Positions 4,606 to 12,129 of a stretch of DNA of 16,659 nt are shown in pieces. A program made the translations under genes and the position numbers. The notes below the pieces were generated by a model. It had not been told where the DNA came from and made no database searches. It saw only the letters and a program-made list of their open reading frames with translations. Numbering within the stretch: position 1 is the stretch's first letter; every line of letters begins with the position of its first letter. The DNA is taken from IMG/VR virus record IMGVR_UViG_2548876696_000013, one strand, 5' to 3'. The stretch is from a virus. Taxonomy: Duplodnaviria; Heunggongvirae; Uroviricota; Caudoviricetes.

Positions 4606-4893
4606 GCTTATTTTTCGCCAGATTATTTTTCAAAAAATTCCCGTGCATAAAAATTTGAGGAGGCGTTCGGTGCCCGGCGGGGTCGGGTTTGTCCTGAAAA
4701 CGCCCCCCACCCCGTCATACAGCCTCATCAGCGATTGCGGAAACATTCCATAACCTCGCGGTCACGGTCGGTTAATCGCTTCGCTGTGATGCGTTCTGCG
4801 CGTCCTGACGCTTTATCTTTATGCCCTGTTTCCTGTGTCTTCCATGCGTCACGCTGCCTTATAAGTCCACGGATAAGGCGGTTTTGTTCCCGC
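4606..4893 (-). other. Candidate cos / packaging-initiation region (non-coding gap between HNH and terS)
   Basis: 288-bp gap in an otherwise tightly overlapping operon. Contains a GC-rich stretch (4664-4720: gtgcccggcggggtcgggtttgtcctgaaaacgccccccaccccg). In HK97-like cos phages the cos site sits between the HNH gene and terS. Confidence 0.35.
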
Positions 4894-5334
4894 TCATTCA
4901 TCGGCGTCATACATCCAGTTATTGCGGTTAGCGGCCCGTTCTTCCTCTTCACGAAATCCACCTGCGGCACGCTTGCTTTTTGTTGCCGGATCAAGCCATT
5001 TCGTTTTCTGGTTATGACACGCCTGGCACAATGGCTGATGGTTCCATTCGGGCCAGAAGAGAACATCATCACCGCCATTAATCGGGATAATGTGATCCAC
5101 CACCACGGCGGGCGTATATATCCCCTTCTCAAGGCATCGCACGCATAACGGGTTTTTACTCAGATACATGGCGCGGTATTTGTCCCACTGTCTGGAATAT
5201 CCACGCGCGCGGCGGTGTCCTCGTCTGGCATCCTCTGCACGCCATGCCGCCCGCCTGTGCTCCTCACACTTGCCGGATTTAACGCGCCTGTTACAGCCTG
5301 GTTCTGTGCATCGTCTTAATGGTTGCCACGGCAT
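4894..5334 (-). CDS. HNH endonuclease, packaging-associated (146 aa)
   Basis: Cys-rich zinc-finger-like segments (CTEPGCNRRVKSGKCEEH, CVRCLEKG, CQACHNQK) and an HNH-like core (VVDHIIPI...WNHQPLC). Position directly upstream of the terminase genes. Confidence 0.85.
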   Translation of the reverse strand: MPWQPLRRCTEPGCNRRVKSGKCEEHRRAAWRAEDARRGHRRARGYSRQWDKYRAMYLSKNPLCVRCLEKGIYTPAVVVDHIIPINGGDDVLFWPEWNHQPLCQACHNQKTKWLDPATKSKRAAGGFREEEERAANRNNWMYDADE

Positions 5335-5630: not shown

Positions 5631-5965
5631 TTTTCCGCGCCCTCACGACAAAGAATTTCAAGGCGTGTCCTGGCGGCATCCGGCAGCGGCTGCCCGATGA
5701 TATTCAGTACACGCCCCGCCAGCGGCCCCGTATTGACCTTTATCCGGCTGGTGGCGCTGATGTCCTTCCGGTACCGTATCCAGATCCTTACGGTACCAAT
5801 CGCCAGCTCTGCACCCGATGAAATGGCCTCCTTGCTGCTGACCATGTTCACGCTTGCCCAGAGTGTGTGACTGTCCTCCCACGTTTCGAGTATTTCGCCA
5901 GTTATATCCCTGGTCTGTTTCAGGGTCTGAATCGTTACCCTGTCACGCAGTCGCCCTATGTTCAT
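5627..5965 (-). CDS. Head closure / head-tail adaptor protein (112 aa from the internal start MNIGRLRDRVTIQ)
   Basis: The start chosen is the ATG overlapping the portal stop (ATGA at 5962-5965). The GRLRDRVTIQ motif is typical of this family. The longer ORF reaching 6007 would overlap the portal gene. Confidence 0.65.
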   Translation of the reverse strand: MNIGRLRDRVTIQTLKQTRDITGEILETWEDSHTLWASVNMVSSKEAISSGAELAIGTVRIWIRYRKDISATSRIKVNTGPLAGRVLNIIGQPLPDAARTRLEILCREGAEK

Positions 5966-7173
5966 TCCGGTTTTTCTCCCTCGCTGATTTTTACTTCCTG
6001 TTTCCATGCCTGGCTGAACTCATCACCACCATCACGCGGGGACAGCCCTTCACGTTCGCGGGCTTCGTTCGGGCACATAACGCCGGATTTGATACCGCGC
6101 TCATAGGTGGCAAAGCGTTCGCCAGGTGTGGCCCGTAACAGGTCCGCGCTGTCAAACTCCACCTGATACCGGATACCAGGTACAGGCGAGGCCACCAGCA
6201 GGGCGTTTTTTATCTGCTGCTCAAAGTTCGCCAGCCACGGGCGCATCGTCATGGTGAGAAATGCGCGGCTTGCCTCGCTGAAATTGCTGTAGGTGCTGTT
6301 GCTGTATTCCTGCAAAAAAATCGGCGAGACGTTGAACATTCGGGCGATGTCTTCAATGGTGAAGCGACGGGAGGCCAGCCATTCAGCATCCTGGTTACTC
6401 ATGCCCAGCTGCTGGTAACTCATGCCACCTTCAAGGATGGGCGTTTTTCCGGCGTTTCTGGCCCCTTTATAGCGTTCCAGTGCGGCTAATGCCTGTTTGC
6501 CCTTCACGCCGTCCAGCCATTCGCCTGACGTGATAACCCCTGCCGCCATCATGCCATCACGCATCACGCTCGCGCCGTGGCGTTGTTGGGCCAGCCCAAG
6601 CCCCAGCGATTCGCGGCAGATGGTTACAGGTGAGCGCCCCATAAAACCGTCATCCGTGGAGTAACGAAGGTGGAGAACCTCCCACGGTAAATAGTTGCGG
6701 GTGTTTCCGGTGTAGGCGTCAGTGATGCAGTAGCGCCAGTTATGCTCACCTGTCTGCTCCACGTTCACCGACTGCGGCGGGTAAGGATGTAAAGCCACCG
6801 GAAAACCATCACGCCCCCACTGAATCACCGCATAAGCATTACCGTTTAACAGGCAGTGGCGGATCATCATTCGCTTAAACTGGTAGGGGGTTTGCCATGC
6901 GTTCGGGCGCTCGTTGAGGATGTGATCGACCGGATGAGAATCAAGCCACTCGCGGGCCACCTTCCCCTTCTCATTGCGTACCAGGTACAGGTAACACGGC
7001 ATGGTAGCCACCGCCTCAGAGATGACCGTGACGGCGTTCATGACGGCGGGCAGTGATTCCGCTGTCCCCGATGATACGTACTCACCCGCCCCCGTGTTCG
7101 ATGTGCCAGCCAGCGCCATAAATTCATCAAGCGTCATGCTGCGCTGCTCTTTTTTTCTTCTGAAAGGCCACAT
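5962..7173 (-). CDS. Portal protein, HK97 family (403 aa)
   Basis: Size and position between the protease and adaptor genes; HK97-type portal sequence pattern from memory. Confidence 0.85.
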   Translation of the reverse strand: MWPFRRKKEQRSMTLDEFMALAGTSNTGAGEYVSSGTAESLPAVMNAVTVISEAVATMPCYLYLVRNEKGKVAREWLDSHPVDHILNERPNAWQTPYQFKRMMIRHCLLNGNAYAVIQWGRDGFPVALHPYPPQSVNVEQTGEHNWRYCITDAYTGNTRNYLPWEVLHLRYSTDDGFMGRSPVTICRESLGLGLAQQRHGASVMRDGMMAAGVITSGEWLDGVKGKQALAALERYKGARNAGKTPILEGGMSYQQLGMSNQDAEWLASRRFTIEDIARMFNVSPIFLQEYSNSTYSNFSEASRAFLTMTMRPWLANFEQQIKNALLVASPVPGIRYQVEFDSADLLRATPGERFATYERGIKSGVMCPNEAREREGLSPRDGGDEFSQAWKQEVKISEGEKPE

Positions 7174-7174
7174 A

Positions 7175-7747
7175 TCACACCCCCGCTAAATCCACCCACC
7201 AGCGGCGATTATCCGCACGCGGCATTTTTTCGGGGTGCTGCTCATACAGGGAACGGCGGGCCAGCTCCACGCCGGAATCAGGGTAAGCCGGAACGGATGT
7301 AACGGTAATTTCGTACAGTTCCGCCACCAGCACGGTGCGCACGCATGGTTCTGTTGTGGTATCCCATACATCCTTACGGGAACGAAAGCCAAAGCTCATG
7401 CCGGATATATCACCACGTTTAACCAGTTCGATAACGTCCCGCCCTGTGCTGGTATCCGGTGGGGTCAGTTCAAAGCGTAACCCTGTTTCGTCCTCTTCCA
7501 GTTTCAGCGTGCCGGAACGGGTACGCCCCAGTAACATGCTGTGGTCATGCTCATACAGGCCGCGAACGTCATTACCCGCCGCAAGCCATTCAGTAAACGC
7601 TCCCCGCTGGAATTTTTCGTAAAACTCACCCCATAACAGTTCTGAAAGCTTATCCCAGCGAACAACGTAGCCCGTCAGCGTACCGGCTCCGCTGGTGGTG
7701 ATTTCCGATGACCGGATTTCCATACTCTTCATAATTTTTTCACCCAT
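7175..7747 (-). CDS. Prohead maturation protease, HK97 family (start ambiguous among ATGs at 7747, 7732 and 7723)
   Basis: Conserved protease-family pattern (GYVVRWDK ... HD ... LLGRT ... GLRFE ... ISGMSFGF). The first ATG lies inside the upstream terminator tract, so the true start is probably one of the next two. Confidence 0.8.
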   Translation of the reverse strand: MGEKIMKSMEIRSSEITTSGAGTLTGYVVRWDKLSELLWGEFYEKFQRGAFTEWLAAGNDVRGLYEHDHSMLLGRTRSGTLKLEEDETGLRFELTPPDTSTGRDVIELVKRGDISGMSFGFRSRKDVWDTTTEPCVRTVLVAELYEITVTSVPAYPDSGVELARRSLYEQHPEKMPRADNRRWWVDLAGV

Positions 7748-7756
7748 AAAACACTA

Positions 7757-7776
7757 AAGGGGCTTTTAAGCCCCTT
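7757..7776 (-). terminator. Intra-operon hairpin (GGGGCTT-AAGCCCC) followed by a U-rich tract, between the capsid and protease genes
   Basis: Hairpin directly seen in sequence. On the minus-strand transcript it is followed by UUUAGUGUUUUAU. Likely a partial terminator that sets capsid-to-downstream stoichiometry. Confidence 0.5.
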
Positions 7777-7786
7777 CTGTATGCTG

Positions 7787-8944
7787 TTAATCGTCGTCCT
7801 GTGGCAGTTCCAGAATCTTGATCGCGTTCGAATCCACCACGCCACCGCCTAAATATTTCTGCGTGAAAATTTTGATGAAGCCCGGCTCTGTGAGGTTGTC
7901 CGGTCTGGTGCGAACACCTGTTTCGTGATCAACAATGTAGTAACCGCGTTTGAAGTCACCCAGGGCAATAACGTTATCAGGCATAAACTCCAGATATTCG
8001 ACCGGAAGGCCCAGCAACGTATCAGGATCACCCGCCTGTAAACGGTCGCGCCAGATGTAATCACCGTTCGCGTTCTTCACCTTCTGAAGTTTTGCCGCCG
8101 TCGTGGAGTTAACCACCCAGACCGCGTTTTTGCGGTATTTTTTACGTAATGCAAATTTCAGGTCGATCAACGGGTCCGCAGATGTCCACGCCAGAGATTC
8201 GGAAGGTTTAATTACCTGCAACGTACCAAAATCACGCTCTTTGTCGTTCTTCTCTGCACGGGGTACGGATAAAAAGCCTTTTGCTTTTTTGTCACCGTCG
8301 CCCACAACCAGATCGCTTTCTTCGGTTTCCGTGAAGGTGTCGCCAATCTCACCCGTCAGCCATGAAAGGATGTCCACATCGGAAAAATCCACGATTTCCT
8401 GTGTGGTGCGCGGGTACGCATAGACCGGATACAGCTTAATGCTCACCTCGTTAATCTGCGGGGTGCTGGTCTGTTCGCGTGTCTTACCCTCTTCACCGTG
8501 GTTAACGGTCGCACCGCCAGCGGAAACAAGCTGCTTAAACTCGTTGCTGCTGATTTTCTTCACGGTACAGATGCGGCGCATGGTGGACTCATCCGCCAGC
8601 ATTCGCATGATTTCGGTGTTCAGCTCGGGGATAACGGTATAACCACCATCAGCGGGAACGCCTGTACTTAATGCGCGGGTTTCACCCGTCAGAATGTAGT
8701 TTCGTAGTTCTGCGGGGTCAGTGGTCTGACTGCTTTTACCTGGCTTGCTGCGCTCTTCGTCTGCAATGGCTTCAAGGCGGGAAATGTCTTTATCGAGGGA
8801 TTCAGCTTTAGCGCGTAATTCGTCAAATTTTGCGCCCTCAGCATCGTTAAGACTGCGGTTTTCTTTTTCCGCGTTCTCCAGCATGTCGCGCATCTGATTT
8901 TTAATGGCGGTTTTCTGCTGGCGTAATTCGATTATTCTCGGCAT
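7787..8944 (-). CDS. Major capsid protein, HK97 fold, with N-terminal coiled-coil delta (scaffold) domain (385 aa)
   Basis: N-terminal 100 aa are charged and helical (delta-domain-like), followed by a capsid-like body. First gene of the head operon. Confidence 0.9.
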   Translation of the reverse strand: MPRIIELRQQKTAIKNQMRDMLENAEKENRSLNDAEGAKFDELRAKAESLDKDISRLEAIADEERSKPGKSSQTTDPAELRNYILTGETRALSTGVPADGGYTVIPELNTEIMRMLADESTMRRICTVKKISSNEFKQLVSAGGATVNHGEEGKTREQTSTPQINEVSIKLYPVYAYPRTTQEIVDFSDVDILSWLTGEIGDTFTETEESDLVVGDGDKKAKGFLSVPRAEKNDKERDFGTLQVIKPSESLAWTSADPLIDLKFALRKKYRKNAVWVVNSTTAAKLQKVKNANGDYIWRDRLQAGDPDTLLGLPVEYLEFMPDNVIALGDFKRGYYIVDHETGVRTRPDNLTEPGFIKIFTQKYLGGGVVDSNAIKILELPQDDD

Positions 8945-8981
8945 AAAAAAAGTCCTGGGGTTAAGTAAGGAACTCCAGGAC
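8945..8981 (-). promoter_or_regulatory. Leader hairpin plus 7-nt A/U tract directly abutting the capsid start codon
   Basis: Stem GTCCTGG (8952-8958) pairs with CCAGGAC (8975-8981). On the mRNA the hairpin is followed by U7 and then the AUG at 8944; the only purine-rich SD-like element sits in the 3' arm of the stem. Confidence 0.5.
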
Positions 8982-9157
8982 GCGGCAAAAACTCAACCGT
9001 TTTTCATAAGGGAATCAGCAATCGCACCGATCGTTTTCCCGCCTGGTAATGAATATTGGCGAGCACATTAACAGGCGGGAAAGTGGCCCCAGCGTCCTGG
9101 CACCACGGGCGAGAATAATCATGATTCAGTTCGGGTAAAATATGCCGATCCGCTCAG

Positions 9158-9205
9158 TGAACAACGTGGAACAACCACGAACAAATAATTTACAAAAAAT
9201 AACAA
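9158..9205 (+). promoter_or_regulatory. Array of 10-bp-phased GAACAA hexamers upstream of the capsid operon; candidate activator-binding site
   Basis: GAACAA at 9159, 9169 and 9179 with spacers CGTG, CCAC and ATAA; two weaker ACAA copies follow at 9192 and 9202. Same motif family as 1584-1609 and 15338-15383. Confidence 0.5.
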
Positions 9206-9225
9206 AAAGCCGGATTGCTCCGGCT
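9192..9225 (-). terminator. Rho-independent terminator after the 74-aa gene
   Basis: Hairpin AGCCGGA-ttgc-TCCGGCT (9208-9225) followed on the minus strand by a U-rich tract; the gene's stop codon is at 9236. Confidence 0.7.
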
Positions 9226-9235
9226 GTATGGGTGC

Positions 9236-9460
9236 TCAGTCCCTGATCCCTTTCAGAAATTCTATCAATGCATCTGTCTGTTCAGGATTTACCGCCAGCA
9301 TTTCACCGGATAGCGCGCAACGAACAAAACCATGATGATCCTTTTCAATCAGCGCCCCCGTTTCCAGGAATGCTCGGTAATCAGTGATGTTCATCGTCTC
9401 CATGTTGTCAGCATGGTATTTATCACGCTGTTTTAATATCTCATCAAATTTCGTCGGCAT
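9236..9460 (-). CDS. Hypothetical protein (74 aa), insulated monocistronic gene
   Basis: Start chosen at the internal ATG (9458-9460), which has GAGGA 7 nt upstream. Flanked on both sides by near-identical terminator hairpins. Confidence 0.55.
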   Translation of the reverse strand: MPTKFDEILKQRDKYHADNMETMNITDYRAFLETGALIEKDHHGFVRCALSGEMLAVNPEQTDALIEFLKGIRD

Positions 9461-9554
9461 TGTTTTTTCCTCTGTTGTGTCTGTTTGTTTCAGATAGTAA
9501 CTATGCCGGACCGTGACGAAAAGCCAGTAGTGCGCCATACCATTTCAAATGACG

Positions 9555-9578
9555 CAAAAAAGCCGGATTGCTCCGGCT
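9555..9578 (-). terminator. Rho-independent terminator after the PerC-like gene (same hairpin sequence as 9208-9225)
   Basis: Hairpin AGCCGGATTGCTCCGGCT at 9561-9578 preceded on the plus strand by A6 (U6 on the minus-strand transcript). Upstream stop codon at 9601. Confidence 0.7.
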
Positions 9579-9600
9579 GCGTGGTGTGGTTCTGATATTC

Positions 9601-9849
9601 CTACTCAGCTAATTTGCTCAGCCCCATGTCTGCATAAGTGCGATTTACTGCATTTCTCAGGTCTGCGTAGTTCTCCGTTGGCGGCTCCGGTGGCCTCTGT
9701 GCCTTCCTGGAACATTCCAGCCGTCGCATCGTAACCTGATGCCGTTCCTTGTCTGTCTCCACCAGCTGCATGACTTCACCCCATCGCGCCGCCGCCCTCC
9801 GGTAAAATCCTTTCGCCTCGAGTTCCTCCGCTATGCGGTCATGTACCAT
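9601..9849 (-). CDS. PerC/ANR-like small transcriptional regulator (82 aa from the internal start MVHDR)
   Basis: Start chosen immediately after the SSB stop, with a strong SD (GAGGGGGTGAGG then ATG). The motif AEELEAKGFYRRAAARWGEV resembles the PerC-family core from memory. The longer ORF to 9969 would overlap SSB. Confidence 0.45.
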   Translation of the reverse strand: MVHDRIAEELEAKGFYRRAAARWGEVMQLVETDKERHQVTMRRLECSRKAQRPPEPPTENYADLRNAVNRTYADMGLSKLAE

Positions 9850-9859
9850 CCTCACCCCC

Positions 9860-10270
9860 TCAGAACGGAATACCATCACCGTAAGGGTCATCGCCTCCCG
9901 CTGGTGGCTGATTACCCTGTGTGCCTGTGGTTTTGCGTCTGTTCCCGCCTGGACGTGCCGCGCGGGCACTGATTACGCTGTCTGCGATAACCTGCCAGCC
10001 CTGCCGCGTTTCGCCGTTCTGGCCTGTCCACTGGCTTACCTGCATCGTGCCGGATACGCTGGCAACATCGCCTTTTTGATGTTTAGCCAGGAAGTCGGCC
10101 TGTTTGCCAAATGCGATGACCGATAACCATAACGTCGCCTGTCCGTCCTGTGCCTGGCTGCATGGCAAAGATACCGCCATACGCGCCAGCGTCATCGGTG
10201 TGCCCTTGCTGGTCTGTTTTACCTGCGGGTCGTCCACCAGCCGCCCGTAAGCGGCTATCTGTGCCGTCAT
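9860..10270 (-). CDS. ssb: Single-stranded DNA-binding protein (136 aa)
   Basis: OB-fold-like N-terminus (YGRLVDDPQVKQTSKGTPMTLARMAV), Gly/Pro/Gln-rich linker and acidic C-terminal tip DDPYGDGIPF characteristic of SSB. ATGA overlap with the upstream gene. Confidence 0.8.
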   Translation of the reverse strand: MTAQIAAYGRLVDDPQVKQTSKGTPMTLARMAVSLPCSQAQDGQATLWLSVIAFGKQADFLAKHQKGDVASVSGTMQVSQWTGQNGETRQGWQVIADSVISARAARPGGNRRKTTGTQGNQPPAGGDDPYGDGIPF

Positions 10271-10518
10271 AATTCCACCTCTCCGGTTTTAACGTTGATG
10301 GTTGTTACCTGTTCCGCTTCGGCAATCTCCCGTTCTGTCAGCGTGGCAAAGTTTGCCGCTGCTGTGGTCATGAATGCGCTTATCAGGTCGGGATGTTCTT
10401 TCGCGTATCCTTCCCCCGCGTGGCGGTCTATCGTTCTGATTGCCACCTTTAAGGCGTGCTCTGTCATGTCTAATGCTTTATATTTTGGCGCTGTCTTATC
10501 TCTGGTTTTTCTGTTCAT
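10267..10518 (-). CDS. Hypothetical protein (83 aa), first gene after the origin
   Basis: ORF translationally coupled to ssb (ATGA overlap). Start abuts the iteron array. No family recognised. Confidence 0.5.
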   Translation of the reverse strand: MNRKTRDKTAPKYKALDMTEHALKVAIRTIDRHAGEGYAKEHPDLISAFMTTAAANFATLTEREIAEAEQVTTINVKTGEVEL

Positions 10519-10716
10519 TCCCCACTACTCCCCACTTTTGCTCCCCACTTTTTGAAATTACCCACCGTCTCCCCACCTCTTTTTTTTGTGATTCTAACGT
10601 TATGTTTTTCAATATGTTTTTTACTCCCCACTTTTTTGGGTGTATACAGGTGGGAAAGTGGGTAATTATGTTTCAATTTTGTTAAATTCCCCACTCTCCC
10701 CACTTTTACTCCCCAC
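10519..10716. repeat. Iteron-type replication origin: 8 direct TCCCCAC repeats, 1 variant, 2 inverted copies and an AT-rich spacer
   Basis: TCCCCAC at 10519, 10529, 10542, 10570, 10625, 10688, 10697 and 10710; variant ACCCACC at 10560; inverted copies at 10649-10664; AT-rich stretch at 10577-10624. Lies directly 3' of the replication ATPase gene. Confidence 0.7.
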
Positions 10717-10719
10717 TTT

Positions 10720-12129
10720 TTACAGCGGGCGCACGTCATCACCGTCAATAACGATTACGCCATCATTTTCCAGCTTGTACAGCCAGCGCCGGAAGTGCTT
10801 CATCTCATACCCCAGCTTTTTCATATCATCGCGGAGAAGGGCGATAGTGCACGCCTCCCCGTGTGCTGTTCGTGTTCTGATGCACTGCCATAGCGCGGCG
10901 TGATTCTCCGTCTTGTTCCCTGCCTCCTCGATGCGCTCCAGTTCAACGGGAGGGCGCGGCTTATCCACCACCACCAGCGACGTGATTAACTCCCCGTCAG
11001 CGTCGGTAAAAAGCTCCACCACCCGCAAATCATAGGCAGCCTCTTTGAGTTCCTCCGCGTCCTTCATTTTGGTGCATGAGATAACCAGCGCTTCGCTTCC
11101 TGCGTCCTCCCTGCGTATCCGGTATTCAGCATCCAGTGATGCACGAAATGCACTGGAACCGCGCGCGCCTTTCGTCTCATCCTTGCCGGAATGGTGAACC
11201 ACCAGCACCGTGGCCCCTGTGCGCCGTTTCAGTTCGTCACACCCACGGATAAACGCCCCCATGTCACGGGAATCATTTTCGTCATTGCCGCCAAAGCAAC
11301 GCGCCAGCGTGTCCAGAATAATCATGCGAACAGGTTTACCCGTTTCCCGCTCAACCTGGCTGGCAGCAATAACCAGTTCATCAACATCAAGCGGGACAGC
11401 CGGAAAGATGGGACGGTTTACAAGGTAAAGATTTTTCACCTGCTCCCCGTGCACAACCTCCCAGGCTTTTACACGACGCGGAACGCCAATACCGCCTTCA
11501 CCAACCACATAGAGAACAGCGCCATGCGCCACCCTGCGGCCTCCCCACTGGCGGCCCGTGGAAACGTGACACGCCCACGATCCGGCAAGGAATGATTTAT
11601 AGGAACCGCTCGCCCCGTATATGCTGCAAAGCGACGATGCCGGAATAATCCCCTTTACCACGTAATCAAGCTGTGTGTCGTATCCGGTAGATCCAACGCT
11701 CATCGGTAGCGTGGTTTTTCGCTGGGGGATTTTTTTCATGACCAGGCTTTCCCCGCGTTCCCATGCCTCCCTAAGCCGTGGAAGCTGGTCGTTCCATTCC
11801 TCCAGCAATTCGAAATTTTCAGAAAGTAGCCGCGCCTCCTGGACTCCGGCGATCGCCAGTTTCGTGGCGATGGTTAACAGCTGCGGCTCTTCAATATTTC
11901 CGGCGCGTATCACCGTCGCCCTGTATCGCCCATCATCAACAATCTGGAGGTTATCCAGTTCGCTTAACTGATAACGCCCCAGATAAACGGGAGGGACTGG
12001 ATCGCCTGCTTTTTTGGCCTGTGCAATGATGTAGTGCTCTGCAAATGAGTGCGCATTATTCCCCGCGAAAATAATTGCTTCGGTGTATTTGTCTTTCGGT
12101 AATAGTTTTACGTTCGGTGCAAGTTTCAT
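10720..12129 (-). CDS. Replication initiation ATPase / helicase-like protein, RecA-fold AAA type (469 aa)
   Basis: Walker A motif GASGSYKS, Walker B-like MIILDTLARCF, and a C-terminal putative winged-helix region. Position immediately upstream of the iterons. Confidence 0.8.
   Translation of the reverse strand: MKLAPNVKLLPKDKYTEAIIFAGNNAHSFAEHYIIAQAKKAGDPVPPVYLGRYQLSELDNLQIVDDGRYRATVIRAGNIEEPQLLTIATKLAIAGVQEARLLSENFELLEEWNDQLPRLREAWERGESLVMKKIPQRKTTLPMSVGSTGYDTQLDYVVKGIIPASSLCSIYGASGSYKSFLAGSWACHVSTGRQWGGRRVAHGAVLYVVGEGGIGVPRRVKAWEVVHGEQVKNLYLVNRPIFPAVPLDVDELVIAASQVERETGKPVRMIILDTLARCFGGNDENDSRDMGAFIRGCDELKRRTGATVLVVHHSGKDETKGARGSSAFRASLDAEYRIRREDAGSEALVISCTKMKDAEELKEAAYDLRVVELFTDADGELITSLVVVDKPRPPVELERIEEAGNKTENHAALWQCIRTRTAHGEACTIALLRDDMKKLGYEMKHFRRWLYKLENDGVIVIDGDDVRPL

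Follow-up and report, generated by a model that had tools for sequence, protein, structure and literature searches.

EcCIEDL933 is the prototype of the capsid-forming type of phage-inducible chromosomal islands (PICIs; 10.1101/2022.09.08.507074 and 10.1101/2025.02.11.637232), a recently recognized route of gene transfer between species. The prototype has been dissected gene by gene only within its packaging module, which comprises nine genes, begins at capsid gene 1786, and excludes the small gene located just upstream (10.1101/2025.02.11.637232). This small gene, which encodes 74 amino acids (aa) and is mentioned in neither of the two preprints on EcCIEDL933, is the subject of the present analysis, together with the two terminators that flank it. 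It was studied in a DNA stretch of 16,659 nucleotides (nt; IMG/VR record IMGVR_UViG_2548876696_000013), the whole of which is referred to as the window. The window is a phage satellite, a capsid-forming PICI of the EcCIEDL933 type, inserted between roxA and phoQ in Escherichia coli; it is 99 to 100% identical in DNA sequence to the roxA-phoQ island of E. coli 00-3076, and Pfam and RefSeq annotation identify the island, which spans ~15 kb from roxA to phoQ, as capsid forming. The prototype, located in EDL933, occupies the same roxA-phoQ site with the same gene order and carries, flanked by the same terminator pair, the orthologue of the 74-aa gene (EDL933_RS08695, or ECs1589) between perC and capsid gene 1786, but it has a DUF927 primase where the window has a RepA-type helicase.

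We read the 74-aa gene and its terminators as a self-contained, old, and optional small-gene unit of EcCIEDL933-type PICIs whose product would be a protein-binding accessory factor, and we would assign this reading a probability of about 0.55. An earlier interpretation made from the letters alone (the sequence-only reading) had placed a 74-aa gene with its own Shine-Dalgarno (SD) sequence at 9236-9460, between hairpins at 9208-9225 and 9561-9578, and all of these coordinates hold. The gene reads from 9460 to 9236 on the minus strand, which that interpretation had left unstated, and its translation is MPTKFDEILKQRDKYHADNMETMNITDYRAFLETGALIEKDHHGFVRCALSGEMLAVNPEQTDALIEFLKGIRD. The SD sequence (GAGG, 9472-9469) lies 8 nt 5' of the ATG, within a leader of ~95 nt (9461..9555, minus strand) that extends from the first terminator (T1) to the start codon and also holds a weak promoter-like sequence, TTTTCG-17-TACTAT. 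Among six alleles, the 60 nt nearest the ATG are nearly invariant, as is the first third of the coding sequence, and the near invariance before the ATG may reflect a recombination tract rather than promoter constraint. The spacer between T1 and the ATG has no duplicate elsewhere in the window by blastn, and an Rfam scan of 8850-9700 returned no RNA family. A longer, 100-aa open reading frame (ORF) starting at 9538 was rejected as the gene, since the extension is not conserved and the ORF is shorter in island L003; distant homologues also begin at the same MP... position as the 74-aa form.

The 18-nt hairpin AGCCGGATTGCTCCGGCT occurs exactly twice in the window, on either side of the gene; with up to 3 mismatches allowed, 0.04 matches would be expected by chance, and two or more copies were seen in 0 of 200 shuffles. 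Both copies were called intrinsic terminators, on the minus strand only, in agreement with the proposal of two Rho-independent terminators built on the same hairpin. Each combines a 7-bp stem, in which five pairs are GC, with a 4-nt loop and a T-run of at least 4 to 5; in RNA, both loops read GCAA, a tetraloop of the GNRA type, and the hairpin has a free energy of -12 kcal/mol. T1 (9556..9578, minus strand; hairpin 9578-9561, U-run 9560-9556) starts 22 nt past the perC stop codon, and the second terminator, T2 (9200..9225, minus strand; hairpin 9225-9208 and a U-rich tail), starts 10 nt past the stop codon of the 74-aa gene. Both hairpins fall within a direct repeat of 28 nt (9204-9231 and 9557-9584), whose copies are 93% identical and lie 353 bp apart. 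The location assigned to the unit, between the replication block and the head operon, was also correct, with RepA and SSB on one side and capsid, protease, and portal genes on the other. The hairpins are identical in the window, as had been noted, but in EcCIEDL933 itself they differ by one loop base (GAAA versus GCAA). This base varies among islands, both forms being GNRA loops, and T1 and T2 are not always alike. Concerted evolution of the hairpins was considered and rejected: the base is G in both copies in the window and T in both copies in L002 and L003, but EDL933 and JEONG-1266 have one of each. An integron-cassette interpretation was likewise rejected because the repeats are perfect 7-bp terminator stems with U-runs rather than attC sites and the sole recombinase is a phage-type integrase.

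T1 follows perC in every E. coli island examined, including islands that lack the 74-aa gene. In O157:H7, pchE (ECs1588) is cotranscribed with ECs1586 and ECs1587 from a start 10 nt before ECs1586 (PMC7369912), and the experimentally mapped 5' end of this polycistronic transcript lies ~675 to 680 nt upstream of pchE (PMC7369912). The spacing of the 83-aa gene, ssb, and perC in the window, perC being the final gene of this operon, matches that distance; because this geometry agrees with the published pchE transcript, T1 is most simply the terminator of the 83-aa gene/ssb/perC operon.

Two strong GNRA hairpins in series directly before a packaging control region could also mean that the terminators are themselves the functional unit, a twofold block on the entry of early or basal transcription into the head operon that an antiterminator of helper or island origin might lift, with the ORF incidental. 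We consider this very improbable. The ORF belongs to a conserved protein family and is under purifying selection, many islands manage with a single terminator, and no antiterminator or nut/qut-like site was identified. The idea does gain from capsid-forming PICIs without perC, in which the TTTGTAAAT motif is followed after ~35 nt by an unrelated terminator-like hairpin, with a putative late promoter just beyond it (L021, ~9290-9330; L024, 3965-3985; L025, ~5820-5845; and L026, ~5812-5835). Because unrelated hairpins precede the putative late promoter in these islands, a terminator insulating the packaging promoter is a recurrent design, and control of that promoter by antitermination is conceivable.

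The sequence-only reading took the gene to be accessory and proposed a presence/absence comparison among related islands. In near-identical islands (L004, L005, L006, L007, and L035), exactly the 353-bp unit is missing and one terminator is kept; the terminator at these empty sites is a hybrid, its left flank matching that of T2 and its right flank that of T1. The RM10809-3 island, for instance, is almost identical to that of the window but lacks the 353-bp unit and has one hybrid terminator. The same precise junction is found in L006, L007, L035 (IAI39), and L005, the last of which has a lambda-type head module. From 840 matching genomes, 60 were taken at even spacing, and 25 rows spanned the junction with at least 87% of the query covered; 11 of these 25 sites were empty (~44%) and 14 were occupied. 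Each of three perC allele groups includes both occupied and empty islands, and empty sites occur with both head-module types. The IAI39 island is intact, with no pseudogenes, and does not carry the 74-aa gene. It is thus well supported that the gene is optional and dispensable for keeping an apparently intact island, and the accessory status proposed for it stands; far from being universally conserved with a recognizable core function, the gene is absent from ~44% of the sampled E. coli islands and belongs to a family annotated as hypothetical. Recurrent recombination between the terminator repeats, 23 to 28 bp long, explains the pattern of polymorphism. The empty-site islands constitute a natural set of isogenic "knock-outs" for the gene.

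A second type of satellite at roxA-phoQ was seen in L008 (JEONG-1266, 5970-9290) and L005. Both share with the window the arm that runs from the integrase to perC, and both carry a lambda-type module (a 68-aa ORF, capsid E, decoration protein D, a 137-aa ORF, and a Nu1-type TerS) in place of the HK97-type packaging module, with the joint at the perC terminator. L008 carries the 74-aa cassette, and L005 is an empty site. The terminator of the perC operon thus marks the joint of replication modules with at least two head modules, which informs how satellites are assembled from parts.

Close relatives of the 74-aa protein occur only in E. coli and Shigella. Homologues were collected by an exhaustive HMMER search, which gave 23 cluster representatives, and a profile search, which gave 68 clusters; together they added ~60 clusters at 30 to 47% identity, all named hypothetical. 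The family spans at least 10 genera, with members in Klebsiella, Citrobacter, Enterobacter, Salmonella, Xenorhabdus, Morganella, Proteus, Arsenophonus, Gilliamella, and Rosenbergiella. The protein matches the phrog_1957 profile over its full length (residues 1-74, E = 1.5e-39; PHROG 1957, function not assigned) and has no match in Pfam, NCBIfam, or PADLOC (PADLOC, 0 families). Three family members searched against 50,697 phage records gave no match, and the family is restricted to phage satellites. Wherever flanking DNA sufficed, the homologue sits between the replication/ori module, which it follows, and the morphogenesis module, which it precedes. An HK97-type capsid gene comes directly downstream of it in Gilliamella, multispecies Enterobacteriaceae islands, Xenorhabdus, and Rosenbergiella (L009, L016-18, L021/22, and L024); in L010 and L025 (Citrobacter amalonaticus), the homologue is followed by one or two opposite-strand cargo genes and then the capsid gene; in Klebsiella (L019/20), it precedes a ClpP-capsid fusion module; and in O157:H7 JEONG-1266 (L008), it precedes the lambda E/D/Nu1-type module. 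Since the family spans these genera and stands beside three different head-gene modules, it is an old resident of the slot. When sampling was seeded with the capsid, at one genome per species and without bias regarding the 74-aa gene, four of five close islands carried a family member; the Erwinia psidii island did not.

These results bear directly on the proposal that the gene is a classical moron, that is, a foreign promoter-gene-terminator unit recently recombined between the replication and head modules with duplication of the terminator. The presence/absence polymorphism, with breakpoints inside the terminator repeat, would be expected of such a unit, as would a terminator on either side of the gene and transcripts in uninduced cells. 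The GC content of the cassette (0.445) also departs from that of the adjacent perC/ssb block (0.57 to 0.61), and the C. amalonaticus homologue is likewise preceded by an unrelated terminator and an AT-rich promoter-like stretch. However, distant satellites have homologues in the very same slot, phage records have none, and no promoter reaches the scan threshold. The cassette is close in GC content to the capsid side, which leaves the perC/ssb block (9601-10270, minus strand), markedly above its neighbors, as the compositional outlier. Furthermore, empty sites in three perC lineages fit recurrent loss better than repeated identical insertions. Thus, a recent foreign insertion is unlikely, and the claim that the gene arrived late by recombination does not survive the finding of homologues at 30 to 47% identity in the same slot in PICIs, capsid forming and otherwise, of many genera. 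What remains of the moron-like description is that the unit is insulated by a terminator of its own (T2), optional, and expressed without induction.

In Xenorhabdus, a homologue of the 83-aa gene of the window directly precedes the 74-aa family member, so that ssb-perC-T1 looks like an added block. PerC and SSB are confined to E. coli and Shigella islands, being absent from the other capsid-forming PICIs examined, and the ssb-perC block is probably a later acquisition. The synteny, the Xenorhabdus adjacency, and the deviant GC content of perC/ssb together suggest that the 74-aa gene is ancestral to the slot and that the E. coli lineage acquired ssb-perC-T1 upstream of it. No relationship was detectable between the 83-aa gene of the window and the 84-aa gene that precedes the homologue in L016. 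With respect to the empty sites, synteny would likewise favor loss of the unit over gain.

The ratio of nonsynonymous to synonymous substitution rates (dN/dS) among E. coli alleles of the 74-aa gene is 0.08 to 0.17, and the gene is therefore under purifying selection. The protein is acidic (pI 5.0, net charge -5), as are all 20 aligned family members (pI 4.6 to 6.7, net charge -0.3 to -8). Positions Y28, D41, A56, Q61, and L69 are conserved in the family alignment, the core of which reads Y28 ... D41-x-H-G-F ... LSGE-x-LA ... EQ-x-D-x-LIE-x-L. Structure prediction, also proposed by the sequence-only reading, gave an AlphaFold2 model with a predicted local distance difference test score (pLDDT) of 79.7 when run from the alignment, whereas the single-sequence model was poor (pLDDT 60). 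The better model has the order helix-helix-helix-strand-strand-strand-helix, with short strands and a C-terminal helix, but it found no significant structural neighbor in PDB or BFVD. HMMER matches to repeat proteins of 1383 aa and 178 aa (P0024 and P0029) were set aside as unrelated sequences with chance similarity.

Downstream of the unit, beginning 4 nt past the T2 tail, lies a region (9159..9196, minus strand) that belongs to the upstream control of the packaging operon and not to the cassette. It contains the conserved element TTTGTAAATTATTTGTTC (9196-9179) and three TTGTTC repeats with 10-bp spacing (9184-9179, 9174-9169, and 9164-9159). The TTTGTAA core of TTTGTAAATTATTTGTTC is invariant in an alignment of seven capsid-forming PICIs from several genera, and the element stays with the capsid operon where cargo genes intervene (L010, L025, and L026). 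A putative packaging-operon promoter, TTTACC-16-TATTCT (9112..9139, minus strand), is below the threshold of the promoter scan and falls in alignment columns conserved between the window and L016. By its sequence layout, this control region looks activator dependent. In addition, an inverted repeat with 17-bp arms (9035-9051 and 9066-9082) was observed in the control region (9035-9196, minus strand), and a hairpin, GTCCTGG...CCAGGAC followed by T7, within 8945-8985 (minus strand) contains the SD sequence of the capsid gene.

The proximity of this region raises the question of whether the 74-aa protein is a small DNA-binding regulator, perhaps winged-helix-like, that acts on the packaging operon through the TTTGTAAAT/TTGTTC element. 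This is the main rival with respect to function. The conserved element lies 1 to 20 nt past the stop codon of the homologue in L016, L021, L024, and L009, the protein is predicted to form three helices and then a beta-hairpin, and the third helix holds the invariant Y28 followed mostly by R or K at position 29. Profile comparison also yields a weak match to part of the domain by which N.BspD6I recognizes DNA (E = 0.0018 over the full sequence and 0.38 for the best stretch). However, the uniform acidity of the family argues against DNA binding. Moreover, the element and an intact packaging module persist without the gene in ~44% of E. coli islands and in that of Erwinia, the sequence of the element is the same in occupied and empty islands, and cargo genes separate the gene from the element in L010 and L025. 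Weakened above all by the intact islands that retain the element without the gene, a role in regulating the packaging promoter appears improbable.

Position directly upstream of the capsid gene in most capsid-forming PICIs could also point to a morphogenetic helper of the downstream capsid, for instance one that chaperones assembly, determines size, or acts like a scaffold. We regard this as highly improbable, as the family occurs with three unrelated head modules, the gene is absent from many intact islands, and terminators separate it from the capsid operon. It is also outside the experimentally defined nine-gene packaging module; mass spectrometry of purified EcCIEDL933 showed a capsid composed of the gene 1786 product, with no decoration protein in its bonding network (10.1101/2025.02.11.637232). 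The 74-aa protein would therefore be neither a structural nor an essential packaging component.

The expression data come from published work. ECs1589, a hypothetical gene, has pchE (ECs1588) on one side and the major head gene (ECs1590) on the other (PMC5931665). Its transcripts were detected by RNA sequencing (RNA-seq) in uninduced O157:H7 cultures and fell ~5-fold (log2 fold change, -2.3) after 12 h of a strong SOS-inducing treatment (PMC5931665, S2 Table). The false discovery rate (FDR) of this change is printed as 0, the lowest of the island; pchE has 0.004 and the capsid gene 3.6e-5 (PMC5931665, S2 Table). The literature thus shows a gene that appears to be transcribed in uninduced cells. 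The statistics suggest robust transcription beyond T1; they hint, short of proof, that the transcript is more abundant than that of its upstream neighbor and hence that the gene has its own promoter. The independent transcription claimed by the sequence-only reading is putative, as is the promoter itself, since a scan of 8000-11000 found 0 sigma-70-like sites at threshold and only the weak sequence in the leader precedes the gene.

Several considerations weigh against the reading of the unit as an old, optional, self-contained gene for a protein-binding factor. With no convincing promoter between T1 and the start codon, the transcripts could be read-through from T1, and the RNA-seq results consist of fold changes and FDR rather than counts and come from another strain (PA20) under the Sakai annotation. 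In L016 and L021, which lack perC, the gene adjoins the replication genes in the same orientation, which fits induced expression better than quiescent-island expression. The recognition-domain match to N.BspD6I, although weak, favors DNA binding. The junctions alone cannot separate loss from gain, and the cassette is present in at least 539 of 5,426 complete E. coli genomes, a count inflated by clonal sampling of O157:H7.

Taking these points into account, we propose with low confidence that the 74-aa protein may be a dispensable protein-binding accessory factor that acts on the helper phage or the host, because it is acidic, independent of the flanking modules, expressed from the quiescent island, and outside the packaging set. 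In the corresponding model, transcription of the 83-aa gene/ssb/perC operon would end at T1. The ~95-nt leader with its ribosome-binding site would precede the 74-codon gene, whose transcript T2 would end. T2 would also shield the activator-type control region and the promoter of the capsid/packaging operon. The terminator repeats allow precise loss or exchange of the 353-bp unit, events that have recurred in E. coli. The protein, made from the quiescent island, would bind a helper-phage or host protein rather than DNA. EcCIEDL933, which carries the gene, does not reduce helper titers (10.1101/2022.09.08.507074).

A bolder version, for which we would claim only a small chance, is that the family is a conserved satellite-specific effector with a fold unmatched in PDB or BFVD, produced by the quiescent island and targeting a helper or host protein. 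Examples under this version would be an antidefense factor that aids establishment in a new species or a sensor or modulator of the helper. If this were true, the terminator repeats would be a built-in switch that lets lineages shed the gene. Current ideas are not overturned by our results, and the unit is tidy but ordinary; nevertheless, a gene that is conserved, transcribed, selected, and uncharacterized lies just outside the packaging module of the prototype itself.

The remainder of the island follows the EcCIEDL933 plan, with Pfam assignments for capsid, protease, portal, RepA, SSB, PerC, and AlpA across the window. On the minus strand, the order is integrase, AlpA, Icd-like genes with a C4 antisense RNA, a DUF4222 gene, and the RepA helicase; then the 83-aa gene, SSB, PerC, T1, the 74-aa gene, T2, and a 290-bp control region; then capsid, protease, portal, head closure, connector, and HNH genes; and finally a ~60-aa ORF, TerS, TerL, and a 93-aa gene. 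The replication block includes the RepA helicase (10720-12129) and SSB (9860-10270). The perC-family gene, of the pchE type, occupies 9601..9849 (minus strand; Pfam PerC, E = 2e-35; coordinates per RefSeq of a near-identical island), and its counterpart pchE is a reported regulator of curli and flagella in O157:H7. The HK97-type major capsid gene (7787..8944, minus strand; Pfam Phage_capsid, E = 2e-61) is the first gene of the packaging module and corresponds to EcCIEDL933 gene 1786 (10.1101/2025.02.11.637232). The C4 antisense RNA (Rfam RF01695; 12873-12960, minus strand; 71.6 bits, E = 1.5e-12), within the Icd-like/ash region, is an immunity RNA of the P1/P7/P4 type, here in a capsid-forming PICI. 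In L002 (3602-3717), L003 (3603-3731), and L015 (37451-37566), RefSeq lists either a 42-aa "hypothetical protein" or a frameshifted "trigger factor" pseudogene, overlapping the 3' end of perC and extending across the T1 hairpin; this call is almost certainly annotation noise.

Two further features of related islands were observed near the small-gene slot. Opposite-strand cargo genes occur before the capsid control region in L010 (6164-7470), L019 (9294-9806), L025 (5307-5717), and L026 (4577-5685), in a cargo slot between the 74-aa family gene, or a replication gene, and the control region. Three cargo genes tested from L010 and L019 matched no PADLOC model, and the cargo gene of L025 encodes a repetitive protein. 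Iteron arrays mark the origin of the island in Gilliamella (GTGTTCACC and GGTGAACA; L009, 7690-7920) and in an Enterobacteriaceae island (GTGCGGCA; L016, 8520-8720); they come immediately after the replication gene, a short way upstream of the small-gene slot.

Beyond the prototype, the unit can be compared with several known systems. The morons of lambdoid phages described by Hendrix and coworkers are promoter-gene-terminator units located between conserved genes. Like them, the 74-aa unit is a small, terminator-insulated gene that is present or absent among syntenic relatives and has transcripts without induction. It differs from them in having no clear promoter of its own and a terminator duplicated on both sides, and in belonging to a family whose position is conserved across genera rather than being foreign to the element.

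The variable regions that flank the PICI packaging operon are anticipated to carry genes for immune systems (10.1101/2025.02.11.637232, citing Fillol-Salom et al.). The 74-aa gene lies at the edge of such a region, upstream of the packaging operon, where L010, L019/20, L025, and L026 have opposite-strand cargo. However, PICI cargo genes vary, whereas the 74-aa gene is conserved, is oriented with the backbone, and matches no PADLOC defense model. Another small uncharacterized gene of the same island is the "hypothetical gene 1792" of EcCIEDL933, a packaging-module gene whose mutation severely reduces transfer. Identity of the two genes was rejected, since the 74-aa gene lies upstream of the capsid gene and outside the operon, and the numbering would make it ~1785. 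Counting from the capsid gene as 1786, gene 1792 corresponds instead to the ~60-aa ORF between HNH and TerS (4728-4910, minus strand), which is phrog_3173.

Finally, the Staphylococcus aureus pathogenicity islands (SaPIs) encode short interference proteins, such as Ppi and PtiA, between their replication and packaging genes, and these bind helper-phage proteins. The 74-aa protein has no sequence or fold similarity to them, but its gene shares their position and its product may share their protein-binding mode of action.

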